Positions 3,594 to 28,449 of a stretch of DNA of 64,000 nt are shown piece after piece. The notes beneath the pieces were generated by a model. That model was not told the DNA's origin, did not search any database, and saw nothing but the letters and a program-made list of their open reading frames with translations. Every line of letters starts with the position of its first letter. The stretch's first letter is position 1. The stretch lies in assembly GCA_965222115.1 (NCBI GenBank), contig CBDCTJ010000007.1, positions 1,856,001 through 1,920,000 of the forward strand, in the 5' to 3' direction. Position numbers and translations under genes: made by a program. This stretch comes from Planctomycetota bacterium (lineage in GTDB: Bacteria > Planctomycetota > PLA2 > JAEUHO01).

Positions 3594-4523
3594 TTGACGC
3601 AAACGGATACCGCTTCATCATCGTCGCCTGAAAGCGGCAGGACGAGCACGTCGCGGAGTATAGGCCTGCTTGTTGTTCGCCTCGCTGGGCTGTGGATCTT
3701 CCTCGGCGGCGTAGCGAAATGGTTATTCGGCGCTCCCGGAGATCTTCCCCGCTTTCTGTGGGATCTGCCCATCGAGCGCGCCACGCTCTTTCCACTTGTG
3801 ATCTCATTTGAGATGGCGCTGGGACTCTTCGCGTTTCTTCGACCTACGCGCGGCTGGTTGCCGATCATTCCGGTGTACCTAGCATTTGTCGCTGTGCTTC
3901 TTACGCAGATTGCGTCGGGTGCCACGTCGTGTGGCTGTATTGGAAGTCAAATCCCGGTGCCGCCATGGCTGATGTTGTCCATTGACCTCGTTTGGCTCGG
4001 ATTGATTTTATTCGTTGCGCGGCCGTGGCGGTGGGGGCGACGCGCGCTTCGGCCACTGCCCCTATTGCTCCCGCTCGTTCTATTGGCGGCCGCATGTCCT
4101 TGGATCTATTCGCGCACCGCGAGCGCCGACGATCCATCCAAGGCGGGTATTGCGTGGGTGGAACCCTCGACGTGGAAAGGCAAGCGTTTCGAAGAGATTG
4201 ACATCTACAAGTGGTTCGACAAGCAAGACATTGAACCCACGGCACTGTACCTGCTCTATGTCGAGAGCTGCGAAGTGTGCGCCGAGCACTTGGATTTGCT
4301 CTACATGCGCGAGCAGGGCGAACGCACGGTGTACCTCATGAAAGTCTGGGAAAAAGATGCGTCCGAGGCCACGCGCAAGGTGCATAAACTACCTAGCGCG
4401 CCCTACATCGAGCCGCGTGAACTGCGCGAGGGCGTCCCCTTTTCTGTTACACCACCTGTCGAGATCGACGTGCGCGACGGCAAAGTCGTGCGGGTCATGG
4501 AGGCGGGGGAGGAGCTTCCATGA
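3594..4523 (+). CDS. MauE/DoxX-family redox membrane protein fused to a thioredoxin-like CxxC domain
   Basis: About 5 TM helices, SCGCIG motif, C-terminal ESCEVC...TPP; stop overlaps the next ATG (ATGA). Confidence 0.78.
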   Translation: MTQTDTASSSSPESGRTSTSRSIGLLVVRLAGLWIFLGGVAKWLFGAPGDLPRFLWDLPIERATLFPLVISFEMALGLFAFLRPTRGWLPIIPVYLAFVAVLLTQIASGATSCGCIGSQIPVPPWLMLSIDLVWLGLILFVARPWRWGRRALRPLPLLLPLVLLAAACPWIYSRTASADDPSKAGIAWVEPSTWKGKRFEEIDIYKWFDKQDIEPTALYLLYVESCEVCAEHLDLLYMREQGERTVYLMKVWEKDASEATRKVHKLPSAPYIEPRELREGVPFSVTPPVEIDVRDGKVVRVMEAGEELP

Positions 4524-5863
4524 AACGCATTTCCTCTCGATCTGTCGTATCCTCTCGATCAAAGTACGTCCCGATTGCAACACTTGCGGTCGTGGCGTTT
4601 GGACTCGCCTTGGCTCTTGCCAAAGAAGATCCCTCGACGAACAGAAAGAAGGGAGGAGCGGAAGCGAATCCCCTCGTGTGGCATGCCGATCTCTATGAAG
4701 CCCACGCGCTGGCGGCAAAGCACCAACAAGCGCTATTTGTCGTCTTTACTTGACAGCCCTGAAAGGACTGCAAGCAGTTTGCCGAGCAGTTTGTTCGGCC
4801 CACGCCCGAGGTCACGAAGCTTCTCTCCGATATGGTGTGCGTGCGCGTCACGAATATGCGCGGCGTCGATCTCTCGGTTTACCACTTCAACTATGATCTT
4901 ACATTCGTGTCGCTGGTCATGCGGGCTGACGGACACATCTACTGCACCTATGGCGACCGCAACGCGCATTCGCCCGATGCCCATTTGAGTATGGAGACAT
5001 TGGCGGCCGCGCTAAAGGCTGCGAAGGCCCTTCACGATGCTTCGCCGATCGCGGATCGAAGCAAGCCCCTCAAGAGGGATCCCAAGACGCACGTCGAGTC
5101 CTTGTCTTCATACGCTAAGACGTTCGCGCCGAAGAAGCGAAACGAATGTGTCCATTGCCACACAGTCAACGATCTTCAGCGGACCCACTTCGAGGCCAAG
5201 GGCACGTGGAAGCGCATTGACAACTTCAAGTGGCCCGATCTCGCCCAGCTTGGCCTCGAGATGAGCACGCGTGATTCACTGGAAGTCACGCGCGTATCTC
5301 CGAAGTCCATCGCATCGAGAGCAGGCGTGAAAATTGGCGACCGACTTGTGAAGGTTGGCGAGCGCGAGCCGCAGAGCTACGGCGATCTCAAGCGAGCCCT
5401 AGATGAGCTTCCGAAGCGTACGGGAACAGCCACCATCGCCGTCAATCGATCTGGGACAACGAAGACGCTCACGGCGAGACTCAACAAGAACTGGCGAATC
5501 CCCAATGCGGCGACCTTTGCGTGGCGCGGCATGAAGTGGCGCATGGTGCCGCAACCGGGATTTGGCGGTCGTCCTCTATCCGTGGTCCAAAAGCGGAAAC
5601 AGGGCATCGACACCAAGAACTTTGCCTTTCGCGTGGGCTACATCGTGAACTGGGGGCCGCGCGCACACGTAGGTCGAGCGGTTGCCGTTGCGGGGCTGCG
5701 AAAGCACGACGTGGTTGTCGCCGTGGACGGAAAGCAGGATTTCGGAAGCGTTTCCGAGTTCCACGCATGGGTGAGACTCAACAAGAAGGTGGGTGAGACG
5801 TTGCGTGTGGACGTACTGCGCAAGGGACAGCCAAAAACGTTTCGCATCCCCATGGTCAAGTAG
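4520..5863 (+). CDS. Trx7/PDZ (seleno)protein with two in-frame UGA codons (U78-Q-P-U81-K-D-C84), a CxxCH motif and two PDZ domains
   Basis: ORFs 4520..4753 and 4832..5863 are in the same frame and separated only by TGA 4751-4753 and TGA 4760-4762. Read-through gives signal peptide, W..DL..A.A.A...LFVVFT-UQPUKDC, CVHCH and PDZ repeats (447 aa). Confidence 0.85.
4765..4799 (+). promoter_or_regulatory. candidate bacterial SECIS hairpin(s)
   Basis: GGACUG-CAAG-CAGUUU (4765-4780), starting 11 nt after UGA1; GCCGAGCA-GUU-UGUUCGGC (4781-4799) with a G-first loop after UGA2. Confidence 0.5.
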
Positions 5864-22102: not shown

Positions 22103-22307
22103 GAGAGGCGGAATACAGGCGCAGATTTGACAAGCTATGTGAGTGCTCACAGCGCGACGGGCGTTTTGGTGGCCCTCTTTTAGCCCTATTCGCGACTTAG
22201 GGCATCTCCGTCGCTATAAGTGATATAGGTGCGTTGTCGGCTTACCCAAGAGTTTGTAAGTAGCGCCTTCTTTGTCCAAACACGTTCCGTATTTTGGGAG
22301 TCACTCC

Positions 22308-23285
22308 ATGGCCCGAATCCTTATTGCACTCCTGGCGCTGCTCACGGCAGGCGCTTTGCTCGAGGACTCACACGCGATGCCCGGCGGTCAGCCACTCAGC
22401 TTTGAAGCACGCGCTGATAAAGACGATGAGCATGAGCGAGAGAAGGAAGAGCGCAAGAAAGCCAAAGAAGCTGAAAAGGAAGCTCGCAAGCGTGAGAAGG
22501 AGGCCGAGAAGGAGCGCCGAGAGCGTGAGCGAGAGGCGCGCAAGGAGCGAGAGGAGTCCGAGAAGGAACGGCGCAAGGACAAGGAAGACAAGAAAGAGAA
22601 GTCTGACAAAGGTGAAGCGAGCGAGACTGAGCGTGCACGAAGTGAGCGCGATCGGGAACTAGCCAAGCTCCAGAAGGAACTCGATCGCGAGATCAAGAAG
22701 GCTCAAGCCGAAGCCGCGCGTGAGAAGAAGCCCGAGAAGGCGGCGGCCAAGGAGGCCAAGCTGCGCGCCAAGTTTCAGTCGAAAAAGATGCATGTGGAGC
22801 GCAAGTACGCGGAGGCTTTAGAAAAGGCTGCGCGTAAGAAGGGTGGAGGAGCCGGAGGAGAGAGCGGCGATAGAGGCAAGCGACCCGGAGGTGGCAATGC
22901 GAAGGGTGGCGGTAAAGGCAAGCACAGGGAACCGACAGAGGAGGAGAAGCGAGCCATGAAGATCGAAGACGAAATCAAGCGCGCTCAAGAAGAGCGAGAT
23001 CGCGAAATGAAGCTGCTCGATGCAGAGTACGAACGTGAAATGAAGCAGGCTGCTGAGGAAGCGAAACGCGAAAACGATCCGGACAAGGTCGAGGCCAAGG
23101 CCGCCAAGCTCCGCGAACGTATCGAAAAGCGTCGATCCGAGATCCTGCGCAAGTATCAGAAGAAAATGGAGAAGCTCAACGCCAAGTTCGAGAAGAAGGG
23201 CGGTAATCAGAATGGAAAGGGCAATGAAGGGAATCGCGGCGGTCGAGACGGACGCGAGAATCGAGGCGGACGAGGGAATCGATAG
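22308..23285 (+). CDS. secreted E/K/R-rich helical protein with an internal duplication
   Basis: GGGAG RBS, signal peptide; ERDRE..L..E..RE.K.A..EA.RE..P.K..AK.AKLR occurs twice. Confidence 0.75.
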   Translation: MARILIALLALLTAGALLEDSHAMPGGQPLSFEARADKDDEHEREKEERKKAKEAEKEARKREKEAEKERREREREARKEREESEKERRKDKEDKKEKSDKGEASETERARSERDRELAKLQKELDREIKKAQAEAAREKKPEKAAAKEAKLRAKFQSKKMHVERKYAEALEKAARKKGGGAGGESGDRGKRPGGGNAKGGGKGKHREPTEEEKRAMKIEDEIKRAQEERDREMKLLDAEYEREMKQAAEEAKRENDPDKVEAKAAKLRERIEKRRSEILRKYQKKMEKLNAKFEKKGGNQNGKGNEGNRGGRDGRENRGGRGNR

Positions 23286-25216: not shown

Positions 25217-26329
25217 ATGACACGCACTATTCGTACGCGCATTTCGTTTGTATGCGCAGCTGCTTGCATCGTTGTCGCTGGATCCACCGTCAATACATGG
25301 GCCGAAGAAGCCAAGTCCGATGCGCCCAATCGTGCGTCGGCAAAGGTTGAATCTACCGCCGAAACCGAGACCTATAGAGCCAAGCAGTTTGTGCCACCGG
25401 CCGCGCCCACGCTTCCCGGTGAGACCACCGCCCCCGATCGCAAGCCCATGTTCTTGTCCGATCAGTTCGCTCGCCGTACACATCGCGATCGCATTGAAGC
25501 GTTGCGCACCGCGAACATGGCGCCTCGCACGTCAACTGCGAAGACAGGCGCGATGGCAACTCCCACAAGTCGCGCACGTACGAATCGTTCCTCTCGCCGG
25601 TCCGAGCTTGAAGAAGTCGCAACTGGCGGATTCTATGAGCCTGAAGACGTAACGCCGAGCGACGTGGTCAACGAGTCGGCACGCGCCAATACAGGCATCT
25701 ACGAACCCGGTCCCGCAGAGGCCTATCTTCCGGGCGACGACGAACGAGTGGACGACGGCTCCGCACTCCTACCCGCGCCGTTCTCTACCAAGGATGGCCG
25801 CACCGTTCGCATGCGCTCGGAGCGCGAATTGGCTGAAGAGTCGTTGAAGTCCCGTCGCAACTTGGAGTCATTGCCAAACTCCGGTCACAAGCGCGCAGCA
25901 CCACTCAAGTCGTTCCGCGGGCATGAGCGCGACGCCCGCCGTTCCTCGCCTCGTTCGAGCGTGGCGAATCGCACATCACGTTCACCGTCGAACCGCCCAG
26001 CCAACCGTGTCGCCTCAACGCCTGCGCCACATTTCAGTGGTTCGAGCAGTGGGACCATCATTCACCGCAGCTCGCCGATCGATCTTGGTCTTGTGCAGCC
26101 GGCACCACGCGTCATTCGCCATTCAGCACCTACGTATGTTCGTCCCGTACCGGTTCGCCCAGCACCTCGCACGATTTATCGCAGTGGTGGCACCACGTAC
26201 AGCAGTGGTGGTGGCGTGACCTATAGCGGCGGAACCCATAACGCTGGAACCCATAACTCTGGAACAACATGGAGTAGTGGTGGGTCCACGTGGAGCAGTG
26301 GCGGATCGACCTGCTTCACCTGAGGCTAG
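25217..26329 (+). CDS. secreted low-complexity protein, candidate selenoprotein ending C-F-T-U-G-stop (ends at 26323 if UGA is a stop)
   Basis: GGGAGG upstream, signal peptide, disordered S/R/P/G-rich body; tail tgc ttc acc TGA ggc TAG followed by a SECIS-like hairpin. Confidence 0.65.
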
Positions 26330-26335
26330 GACGAT

Positions 26336-26354
26336 CGCTGGCCGGTGGCCAGCG
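26336..26354 (+). promoter_or_regulatory. candidate bacterial SECIS
   Basis: CGCUGGCC-GGU-GGCCAGCG perfect 8-bp stem starting 12 nt after the UGA; GGU loop; no U-tract after it. Confidence 0.6.
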
Positions 26355-26460
26355 CCATAACAATCACGTTTCGCCTTTAGCATTGTCGTCCCAGGAGCGG
26401 GTATGCCCTCATGGGGCTTCCTTCTTGACAAACCTCGTTCTCGCTGCGTTTCACTGCAAC

Positions 26461-26925: not shown

Positions 26926-27078
26926 CCTTGCGGGAAAGTGTTGCGGAAGGGGCCGATCGGGCGCTCCCTGCCCCGCGACCTACGGGTACTCGTACTATGA
27001 CACCCGTACTATGACACAGGCTGAACCCCGCGACCGGGGCTGCGTTTGGTCTCCCCGTCACCGTTTGGAGCTTCTCTC

Positions 27079-28449
27079 ATGACCGTCTTCCGCGCACTTT
27101 CCGGTCTCTTTGTCCCTCTGTTTGTGGTTTCGCTAGTTTTCGTTGGTTGTGGCGACTCGGAAACATCGAATGAGACGACCCAGGACGGTGCATCAAACGG
27201 CGTAACGAACGGCGCATCAAGCGGCACTGTAGCCAAGCCCGATGGCGACCAGTCGAAGGCAGCAGGGACGAGCAAGGGGGACGACGGTGGCGCGCGAGCC
27301 GGCGGTCTTGCATCCCATGCCGATCTCGGCGATGCGCTCACCAAGAAAGTTCACGCGGCGCTACGAAAGGCACGTCACGGGCTTGCGCGCGTTCAAGAAG
27401 ACGACGGGTCGTTTGGCGCGCCTTCGCTCGACATGCCGCCAAGTGTTGGTTTTACGGCCATGGTCACGATGGGGCTCATGGCAGCGACCACCAAGACGCA
27501 GGTTGCCAAAGATGAGGCCATCAACGAAGCGCTTGCGTTTATCGCATCCAAGCAGAAGGAAAACGGCGCCATCTTTGGAAACCCTCAACACATTACCTAT
27601 GAGACCAGTGTTGCCGTGGGCGCGTTCGCGCTAGCGCGCATACCCAAGTTTCGTTCGAATCAAATGAAGGCCCGGAACTACCTCGTTGAGAGTCAAATCG
27701 TGGCCGATGAGAGCGACGCGTCGCATGGTGGCTTTCCCTACAAACAAGACAAAGGACAGCCGGCCGATCTGAGCAATGCGCAGATGGCCGCGACCGCGCT
27801 CTACGACGCCGAGCTCGATAAGGACCACGCGCTTTGGAAGCACCTTCGCTCCTTTACCAAGCGCGTTCAAAACGACTCCGAGTCCAATACAACGGAACAG
27901 GAGATCGAGCACGACGGAAAGAAGATAGTTGTCGTGTCGGGACAAGACGGCGGTGGCATCTACGGGCCCGGGCTGGTGAAGGCGGGCGTCGTGAAACGCG
28001 GTGACGGAAAATGGGAGATTCGCAGCTACGGTTCCATGGGGTATGCGCTGCTCAAGTGTCTCCTGTTTGCGGGCGTCAAGCCCGAAGACCGCCGCGTACA
28101 GATCCTGGTGAAGTGGTTGAGTGACCATTGGACCGTCGATAAGAACCCCGGATTCGAAGCGCATGAGAATCCTGAGATGGCCGGTCAACAAGGGCTCTTT
28201 TACTACTACTTCACGTGCGCGCGCGCATTGGCCGAATACGAAAAGCACGCGGGCAAGCCCTTGGTCATTAAAGATCGCGCCGGAAAAGAGCACCACTGGC
28301 GTCGCGAACTTGCGGAGAAGATTCTTTCGCTCCAACAAGAGAACGGCTTGTGGAAAAACAAGGTCGATCGTTGGGGTGAGAGCGCCGAGACATTGGCGTC
28401 CGGGTATGCCATGCAGGCACTCGGATTCATCACAGGGCGGCTTCCGTAA
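27079..28449 (+). CDS. prenyltransferase/squalene-oxidase repeat lipoprotein
   Basis: Lipobox FVGC; QEDDGSF, QKENGAI, GGFPY, ADLSN, YGSM, QQENGLW repeats. Confidence 0.8.
   Translation: MTVFRALSGLFVPLFVVSLVFVGCGDSETSNETTQDGASNGVTNGASSGTVAKPDGDQSKAAGTSKGDDGGARAGGLASHADLGDALTKKVHAALRKARHGLARVQEDDGSFGAPSLDMPPSVGFTAMVTMGLMAATTKTQVAKDEAINEALAFIASKQKENGAIFGNPQHITYETSVAVGAFALARIPKFRSNQMKARNYLVESQIVADESDASHGGFPYKQDKGQPADLSNAQMAATALYDAELDKDHALWKHLRSFTKRVQNDSESNTTEQEIEHDGKKIVVVSGQDGGGIYGPGLVKAGVVKRGDGKWEIRSYGSMGYALLKCLLFAGVKPEDRRVQILVKWLSDHWTVDKNPGFEAHENPEMAGQQGLFYYYFTCARALAEYEKHAGKPLVIKDRAGKEHHWRRELAEKILSLQQENGLWKNKVDRWGESAETLASGYAMQALGFITGRLP

Follow-up and report, generated by a model that had tools for sequence, protein, structure and literature searches.

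Prokaryotic selenoproteins comprise more than 110 families according to a 2026 review, which describes bacterial SECIS elements as "typically" located within coding regions and whose Table 1 includes UXX-star, KCU-star, and SaoC as families with selenocysteine (Sec) at or next to the C-terminus (PMC13188914). Where no more than two residues separate Sec from the stop codon, the SECIS can only lie downstream of the coding region. SaoC proteins, as described in a preprint, have a signal peptide or are lipoproteins, count as "dark matter", and end in Cys-Cys-COOH, whereas three members end in Cys-Sec, with a UGA-UAG tandem and a 7-bp stem carrying a GGU loop (Haft & Gwadz, bioRxiv 10.1101/2022.07.06.499078). 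Here, we describe a candidate of comparable layout in a Planctomycetota genome (G000; 4.55 Mb, 59% G+C, seven contigs). The window, i.e., the whole stretch of DNA analysed, is 64,000 nt long and corresponds to C7:1856001-1920000. Based on comparison of sequences among related genomes, the TGA at 26321 very probably encodes Sec, and the protein would end in ...S-T-C-F-T-U-G-COOH.

The open reading frame (25217-26323) starts with the ATG at 25217 and closes with ACC TGC TTC ACC (T365 C366 F367 T368), and the TGA is directly followed by GGC (26324-26326) and an in-frame TAG. The codon of C366 occupies 26312-26314; the only other Cys residues, C13 and C17, lie inside the signal-peptide-like N-terminus. 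The initial annotation had pointed to a TGA three codons past the sole Cys of the mature region, followed by GGC TAG, and to a perfect hairpin 12 nt past the UGA with a GGU loop at positions 24 to 26 and no U-tract; both statements are confirmed from the sequence. All features of the locus are collected in the table below.

Features of the candidate gene and its 3' flank, in window coordinates (T of the TGA counted as +1)
Feature	Position	Strand	Detail
Full coding sequence as proposed	25217..26329	+	368 sense codons, Sec codon, Gly, TAG; 370-residue precursor
Signal-peptide-like N-terminus, M1-A29	25217..25303	+	Read by eye
Gly/Ser/Thr-rich tail with aromatics (T[YW]SSGG-type units), running into S-T-C-F-T	26186..26320	+	
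C-terminal motif as proposed, C366-F-T-U369-G370 (C-x-x-U-G-COOH)	26312..26326	+	5-sequence alignment A3
TGA, proposed selenocysteine codon	26321..26323	+	Kept in 4/4 TCFT-ending sequences with DNA; Cys-aligned in G021
TAG, proposed true stop	26327..26329	+	+7 to +9 in G000
Proposed bacterial-type SECIS hairpin, 3'UTR	26336..26354	+	8-bp perfect stem, GGT loop at 26344-26346
Terminator-like site: 5-bp stem, then T-rich tail	26405..26427	+	Consensus scan

The predicted protein has few recognizable parts. Read by eye, its N-terminus consists of a basic n-region, a hydrophobic core, and T-W-A ahead of E30, suggesting that the protein is probably exported. The body is rich in Arg, Ser, Thr, Pro, and Ala and leads into tail units of the types TTYSSGGG, VTYSGG, TTWSSGG, and STWSSGG; the last unit, S-T-C-F-T-U-G, counts seven residues, as does the S-T-W-S-S-G-G before it. 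This repeat-unit tail is specific to G000; in the other orthologues, its place is taken by a short ...[TS]Y[ST]S... segment. A single-sequence AlphaFold2 model reached a pLDDT of 48.4 and a pTM of 0.19, too weak for use; its low confidence, together with the composition, is consistent with a largely unstructured protein. The gene neighbours are a tRNA-Arg gene and genes for an HTH_3 protein, a DUF309 protein, and a protein with a weak TED-domain match. A Pfam match of the candidate to zf-C2H2_STOP2 (E 0.17) was rejected as chance level.

Is the open reading frame a gene at all, or do its features merely coincide? The codon score backs the frame weakly, with a margin of 0.060 compared to 0.184 ± 0.069 for long ORFs, and falls to about 0 across the final 500 nt; Pfam and NCBIfam scans returned no family match (NCBIfam release 20.0, read-through protein, E ≤ 0.01), and the full-length searches described below yielded no homologue, all of which, like the low-confidence fold, would suit a spurious frame. 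Chance, on the other hand, does not account for the open frames found at the same place in four other genomes, which encode signal peptides and share the C-terminal motif, nor for the homology of the G015, G041, and G021 proteins over their whole length, and no long competing ORF overlaps the region. We consider it extremely improbable that the candidate is not a real gene.

The hairpin downstream of the TGA, CGCTGGCC-GGT-GGCCAGCG, spans +16 to +34 and places its loop at +24 to +26; CCATAACAATCA follows it directly. Its sequence occurs once in the 4.55-Mb genome. The hairpin forms in 63-nt and 101-nt folds of the G000 sequence; in a 50-nt fold, the hairpin is replaced by a minimum-energy structure in which GGCTAG (+4 to +9) is bound to a portion of its 5' arm. 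With the UGA held in the A site, a hairpin starting after a 12-nt spacer would sit just outside the ribosome, where SelB with GTP and Sec-tRNA(Sec) would be expected to bind the G-U-bearing apical loop; Sec would then be inserted, one Gly added, and translation terminated at the TAG. Binding of SelB to an apical G-U is known from the E. coli and Moorella systems.

The same structure can be given a more ordinary role. If the TGA were a plain stop and the protein ended in ...STCFT-COOH, the hairpin could be a terminator lacking a T-tract or a stem that stabilises RNA and serves the convergent DUF309 gene as well, and it does lie between these two convergent genes. To this reading the chance level within the genome is favourable. 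Our gene set for stop statistics held 3,330 ORFs of at least 120 amino acids with a codon-score margin above 0.06, which the candidate (0.060) barely passes. Hairpins without a T-tract follow all three stops at similar rates: perfect hairpins of at least 8 bp within 30 nt were found after 6/1019 TGA, 13/1570 TAG, and 13/741 TAA codons and at 9/3215 positions inside genes. SECIS-like hairpins of at least 5 bp follow 49/1019 TGA, 64/1570 TAG, and 23/741 TAA codons (140/2918 inside genes), and those of at least 8 bp follow 5/1019, 8/1570, and 2/741, respectively (2/2918 inside genes). They are thus no commoner after TGA than after the other two stops, so that the hairpin alone would fit a terminator. 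A Cys within four residues combined with a hairpin occurs at 5/1019 TGA, 1/1570 TAG, and 1/741 TAA codons, and an extension of at most 3 codons combined with a stem of at least 6 bp occurs at 3/1019, 1/1570, and 0/741. These single-genome statistics are suggestive at best and not decisive for the candidate, and a scan over many windows would meet such TGA-hairpin coincidences by chance. It is conservation across genomes, not the statistics of G000, that puts the candidate Sec codon beyond chance. At the locus itself, the consensus scan did not flag the hairpin as terminator-like and marked a separate terminator-like site about 50 nt past it, which speaks against a terminator role for the hairpin; this second site is possibly the real terminator of the candidate gene, a weak lead from a scan that gave 3 sites compared to 1.5 ± 1.2 in shuffled sequences. 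No promoter-like site was found in the same scan of the locus.

How can relatives be found for a low-complexity protein whose UGA precedes no more than one or two residues? With so short an extension, homology is untraceable beyond the UGA. The full-length candidate recovered only itself among 5.8 billion proteins and only itself among 40 relatives, although G015, G021, and G022 were included; against 1.84 billion representatives, it gave one weak repetitive match (P0002, 2e-8, residues 171 to 206). The G015 protein as a query detected neither G000 nor G022, and the G021 protein as a query for related loci gave no match. Gene order was more informative. The neighbour gene at 27046-28449 is present in 29/29 genomes of the family and adjoins a DUF309 gene in 7 of the 19 loci examined, the same as in the window; among five DUF309-adjacent loci that were extended, G015 carries an orthologue, and the other four hold a different gene there. 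The orthologues of G015 and G041 were found through this synteny (tRNA gene, candidate gene, DUF309, and the gene at 27046), and that of G022 was found by a C-terminal pattern search over the order. Pattern scans of wider scope added no further genome: 35 of 401 phylum genomes had a match, and among the 30 loci inspected, only those of G000, G015, and G022 were real, the five matches left out of inspection all being TGY forms; 2 of 17 matches in 185,579 species genomes were real, both contigs of G015 and G022; and none of 26 matches in metagenome contigs was real. A Cys form ending in C-F-T-C-G-TAG was absent from all of these scans (phylum, species genomes, and metagenome contigs). The candidate family seems to be rare and restricted to one planctomycete family.

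Three database proteins related to the G015 protein, P0003, P0004, and P0005 (the last 54% identical), are all annotated as ending in ...TCFT. P0004 is a "hypothetical protein" at NCBI, and the NCBI record of one homologue is 219 amino acids long, cut at ...TCFT; P0006 diverges close to its end, on a 927-nt contig, and is uninformative. Taken literally, these records favour an ordinary stop; they also agree with the expectation, voiced in the initial annotation, that automated annotation would miss a gene of this kind.

The UGA-form set comprises four sequences (G000, G015, G041, and G022) from three genera, since the other three Planctomycetota genomes belong to the same family as G000 but to two further genera; G015 and G041 share a genus, so that the sequences are not all independent. 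The three orthologues have a common ending, ACC TGC TTC AC[CG] TGA GGC (CAC) TAG. In G015, a secreted, low-complexity protein of 219 amino acids, convergent with DUF309, ends in ...G-T-C-F-T, TGA, GGC, TAG, and the hairpin has 7 bp and a GTC loop; in G041, the ending is ...S-T-C-F-T, TGA, GGC, CAC, TAG, and the hairpin has 8 bp and a GTT loop; in G022, a lipoprotein-like protein of about 125 amino acids ends in ...G-S-T-C-F-T, TGA, GGC, TAG, and the hairpin has 7 bp and a GTT loop. The N-termini of the G015, G041, and G021 proteins read M-R-[TS]-[IF]-R-A-L and continue into an Ala-rich core, and that of G022 is lipoprotein-like (...MAAG-C). Homologues with the predicted C-x-x-U-G ending and a hairpin at the same distance had been proposed as a check, and they were found; none of them has TAA or TAG at the Sec codon. 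In the five-sequence alignment A3, T365, C366, T368, and the U/C column do not vary.

The ordinary-stop reading leaves much of this pattern unexplained. The TGA, the GGC after it, and an in-frame stop one or two codons further on are kept in 4/4 sequences, despite protein identities of about 27%. The final TAG lies at +7 to +9 in G000, G015, and G022 and at +10 to +12 in G041, and the hairpins start at +16, +16, +15, and +16 in G000, G015, G041, and G022, respectively, with loops GGT, GTC, GTT, and GTT at +23 to +26. In G041, the stop comes 3 nt later while the hairpin keeps its position, indicating that its distance is fixed relative to the TGA rather than to the terminal stop. Across the stems (CGCTGGCC, GGCGGCC, TGACGGCC, and ACCGACC in the same order), 5 of 8 pairs changed on both sides, 93.8% of cells remain paired, and the covariation score was reached by 0 of 500 shuffles; sliding the 3' partners by 1 to 3 columns abolishes the pairing. 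In G022, a script tolerant of G-T pairs also detects a longer stem, downstream of the hairpin, as an alternative. All UGA-form hairpins keep G-T at one or the other end of the loop, a persistence for which an ordinary stop offers no explanation either. On the side of the decoding machinery, tRNA-Sec is above the cut-off in G015, G022, and G041, and selB is above the cut-off in all four genomes with orthologues.

A Sec/Cys pair is provided by G021, which belongs to the genus of G015 and G041 and has an orthologue at the same gene-order position, homologous to the G015 protein with an E value of 4.9e-27 and 44% identity over residues 1 to 218 of 219. This protein ends in ...T-G-T-C-T-T-C-R-N-R-A-R, with a genuine TGC codon in the TGA column, and no Watson-Crick hairpin of at least 5 bp was found in the 50 nt 3' of the site, nor was tRNA-Sec found above the cut-off in this genome. 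Thus, the search for Cys homologues that had been suggested for this locus yields C-x-x-C at the site, without the hairpin, in a single example. The accepted computational criteria for a selenoprotein are conservation of the UGA, a homologue with Cys, and a SECIS found in the UGA forms only (PMC13188914). For an ordinary stop, an orthologue that reads on through a Cys codon and lacks the hairpin is a further unexplained observation, and with the conservation described above we judge that reading to be quite improbable.

Alternatively, the UGA might be read through without Sec, by a near-cognate Trp or Cys tRNA, or be subject to occasional, functionless read-through. A G directly after UGA does not make for strong termination, and the extension is so short that leaky read-through would be harmless. 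The covarying hairpin at SECIS distance, the G-T of its loop, and genomes with tRNA-Sec and selB point instead to SelB-dependent decoding, and a Cys codon aligned with the UGA, as in G021, is the usual signature of Sec; read-through of this other kind is therefore scarcely credible. We retain Sec as the reading of the TGA.

The host genome has what Sec decoding would need. In G000, tRNA-Sec scores 71.6 bits (anticodon tca by ARAGORN), and selB (346.6 bits), selA (480.7 bits), and selD (150.6 bits) all exceed their curated cut-offs, so that the sel genes to be looked for according to the initial annotation are present. The selD match lies at the end of contig C1, with internal stops and a second frame, likely an assembly problem rather than a truly broken gene. 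A screen of G000 for in-frame TGA codons flanked by coding-like sequence gave 78 raw candidates, 14 of which were checked against Pfam and NCBIfam. The selenoproteins of this genome include three deiodinase-like proteins (F-G-S-[YH]-T-U), one AhpD/CMD-like protein (C-R-F-U), and one Trx7/PDZ protein in the window; several uncatalogued in-frame-TGA candidates bear C-U, U-C, or W-U-P-G motifs. In the Trx7/PDZ gene (4520-5863), which matches NF041199 (Trx7/PDZ (seleno)protein) with 352 bits at a cut-off of 300, the two in-frame TGA codons belong to a U-x-x-U motif of the thioredoxin type; this is the double-UGA gene that had been invoked as support for Sec use in this organism, and it does lend that support. 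Among the internal candidate Sec sites of G000, 10 of 11 have a stem of at least 5 bp with G-T in a 3- to 7-nt loop at +21 to +31, the loops including AGGTC, GGTC, GTC, and GTT. The candidate hairpin fits this local SECIS style.

A screen of G000 for a Cys combined with a hairpin also caught C7:1198372-1199688, which encodes a 438-amino-acid CAP-domain lipoprotein (PF00188) ending in ...E-C-K-T, TGA, AGT, CGC, TAA; its hairpin has 7 bp, and the GTT loop stands at +21 to +23. Among the best 11 loci of this family from relatives, 8 end in ...G-[SGF]-G, TGA, GG[CG], NNN, stop, 1 runs off its contig, and 2 stop just past the CAP domain, at a different place. Including the G000 copy, 7 of 9 CAP tails have 7- to 8-bp stems with loops starting with G-T (GTT or GTC) at +21 to +30; of the other two, one has a GGC loop and one only a weak hairpin. 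NCBIfam places the CAP lipoproteins in no selenoprotein family. Putative C-terminal Sec with a predicted SECIS in the 3'UTR is a recurring device in this lineage, and a second family of the same design raises the prior for the gene in the window.

Two unrelated protein families with this Sec tail have been found, and a lineage-wide set may exist.

What would a Sec residue do at the tip of such a protein? T-C-x-T-[U/C] is the sole conserved element, and the function would thus reside in a C-x-x-U pair on a tether. On a flexible tail, this pair may act as a thiol/selenol redox couple, forming a selenenylsulfide, or as a ligand for a soft metal; the initial annotation had proposed a swinging selenylsulfide tail. 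A bolder proposal, which we regard as rather unlikely, is that the U-G-stop or U-G-x-stop tail on lipoproteins and on secreted proteins with long disordered linkers is a recurring module, a selenium-tipped envelope tether. Such a module might serve as a mobile arm for redox exchange or, through a selenenylsulfide bond, as a covalent tag for docking or sorting, and not as the active site of an enzyme; to these roles we likewise assign a low probability.

The candidate would add a selenoprotein family that is catalogued in no HMM library. Gene callers and homology-based selenoprotein finders miss read-through of one or two residues on proteins too divergent to align. Together with the CAP lipoproteins, it suggests that Planctomycetota put Sec at the tips of exported flexible tails, a use of selenium that has hardly been explored. 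The hairpins of the 3'UTR, small-looped and constant in spacing, would be compact natural SECIS elements outside the coding sequence, the layout wanted for recombinant selenoprotein production.

Several known systems share part of this design. The SECIS of E. coli fdhF, whose TGA is codon 140, presents G-G-U in its apical loop at +22 to +24, as the initial annotation had stated, compared to +24 to +26 in the candidate; the fdhF element is intra-coding, its stem interrupted and its loop 4 nt long, whereas that of the candidate combines an 8-bp perfect stem with a 3-nt loop and lies wholly in the 3'UTR. Mammalian thioredoxin reductase, a flavoenzyme decoded with a eukaryotic SECIS, ends in G-C-U-G-COOH on a flexible tail. 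It resembles the candidate in a penultimate Sec followed by Gly, a nearby Cys, and a flexible C-terminal tail but differs in that Cys and Sec are adjacent and borne by a flavoenzyme, whereas the candidate has C-x-x-U, no recognizable domain, and a bacterial SelB-type hairpin. KCU-star (DUF466, NF033934) and UXX-star families 1 and 2 (NF041114 and NF041211), compared here by names and motifs alone, have Sec zero to two residues before the stop, like the candidate, but differ from it in their motifs (K-C-U; U-x-x-T; G-x-G-U) and host lineages.

The candidate has no HMM match to NF040734, NF033934, NF041114, or NF041211 in NCBIfam release 20.0, and the motif C-F-T-U-G has no occurrence in the searchable literature, although supplementary tables (e.g., S9 of PMC4807772) may list planctomycete selenoproteins. 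The most extensive likeness is with SaoC (CD2366-family, NF040734): both have a signal peptide (often of the lipoprotein type in SaoC), no known domain, a Sec at the extreme C-terminus, a close second stop after the UGA, and a perfect stem with a GGU loop in the 3'UTR, and Cys stands at the Sec site in most SaoC members as it does in G021. The two differ in that SaoC ends in C-U-COOH, with adjacent residues, and the candidate in C-x-x-U-G-COOH; and SaoC proteins, of about 158 amino acids, belong to a nine-gene SAO neighbourhood in anaerobes, whereas the candidate lies between tRNA-Arg and DUF309 genes in Planctomycetota, a setting that is not SAO-like as judged by gene neighbours only. The absence of an HMM match, the different motif, neighbourhood, and phylum, and the absence of the motif from the searchable literature suggest a new selenoprotein family. 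Of the original proposal of a new selenoprotein, the part that stands is an uncatalogued family; the arrangement of a C-terminal Sec with a 3'UTR hairpin, although rare, was known already from SaoC, KCU-star, and UXX-star, and SaoC is the closest precedent of the candidate in architecture.

The genome holding the window, G000, carries a gene of an established selenoprotein family within the window itself. The Trx7/PDZ gene contains two in-frame TGA codons, giving F-T-U-Q-P-U, and is a member of the known selenoprotein family NF041199, here with two selenocysteine (Sec) residues. The Sec machinery gene selD also has a match in this genome (L019), whose N-terminus reads ...A-G-G-U-A-A-K, suggesting that SelD of G000 itself contains Sec. 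The selA gene is split, with one part at the end of contig C1 and the other at the start of C7 (C7:4-1329), and the two contigs therefore probably adjoin.

Features in the window and elsewhere in G000
Feature	Location	Strand	Remarks
Trx7/PDZ (seleno)protein	window 4520-5863	+	NF041199, 352 bits
337-aa protein	window 22272-23285	+	signal-peptide-like start; repetitive body, extremely Lys/Glu/Arg-rich
selD match (L019)	C1:654443-655201 (end of contig C1)		interrupted by stops, continuing in a second frame
CAP-domain (PF00188) lipoprotein with Pro-rich tail (L039)	C7:1198372-1199700		tail E-C-K-T-U-S-R

The CAP-domain lipoproteins seem to make up a second family that carries C-terminal Sec and is not yet catalogued. 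Orthologues of L039 (L044-L048 and L050-L052) share the PF00188 domain and the Pro-rich tail, which ends in G-x-G, TGA, GG[CG], NNN and a stop, followed by a hairpin in the 3'UTR; the hairpin loop starts with G-T in seven of the nine loci. Outside the window, G000 encodes further secreted proteins with an in-frame TGA (L025, L026, L027, L030, L032, L033, and L035), in the motifs C-U, U-C, W-U-P-G, W-U-C, or C-T-U-G, and all except L033 have SECIS-like hairpins. Searches of Pfam and NCBIfam matched none of the seven to a selenoprotein family: L026 gave weak HEAT-repeat matches and L035 FG-GAP matches, while L025, L027, L030, L032, and L033 gave no match of any kind. L025/L027 and L026/L030 look like two paralogue pairs, and the seven proteins may represent further new selenoprotein families.

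In another genome, G412, a 93-codon open frame on contig C3 (L102) is followed by T-C-F-T, TGA, GG and then 35 more open codons; this T-C-F-T-TGA-GG could be a chance occurrence or an unrelated Sec site.

Within the candidate protein, residues 171-206 (window 25727-25834; F-S-T-K-D-G-R-T-V-R-M-R-S-E...) resemble a unit repeated nine times in the 1124-aa database protein P0002 (E value, 2e-8), and AlphaFold2 predicts a helix at residues 202-217. The 337-aa protein had no Pfam match.

Contig C6 of G000 (48,116 bp) has a G+C content of 39.7%, compared to 55-59% in the other six contigs, which could mark it as a foreign or mobile element or as a contaminant introduced in binning. On several G000 contigs, stop codons are directly followed by a recurring palindrome of 14 bp (TGCGCCACAAAAGC, then a 3-nt loop and the complement). 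Of the 32 post-stop hairpins listed in this genome it makes up 6, and it resembles a REP-type element.
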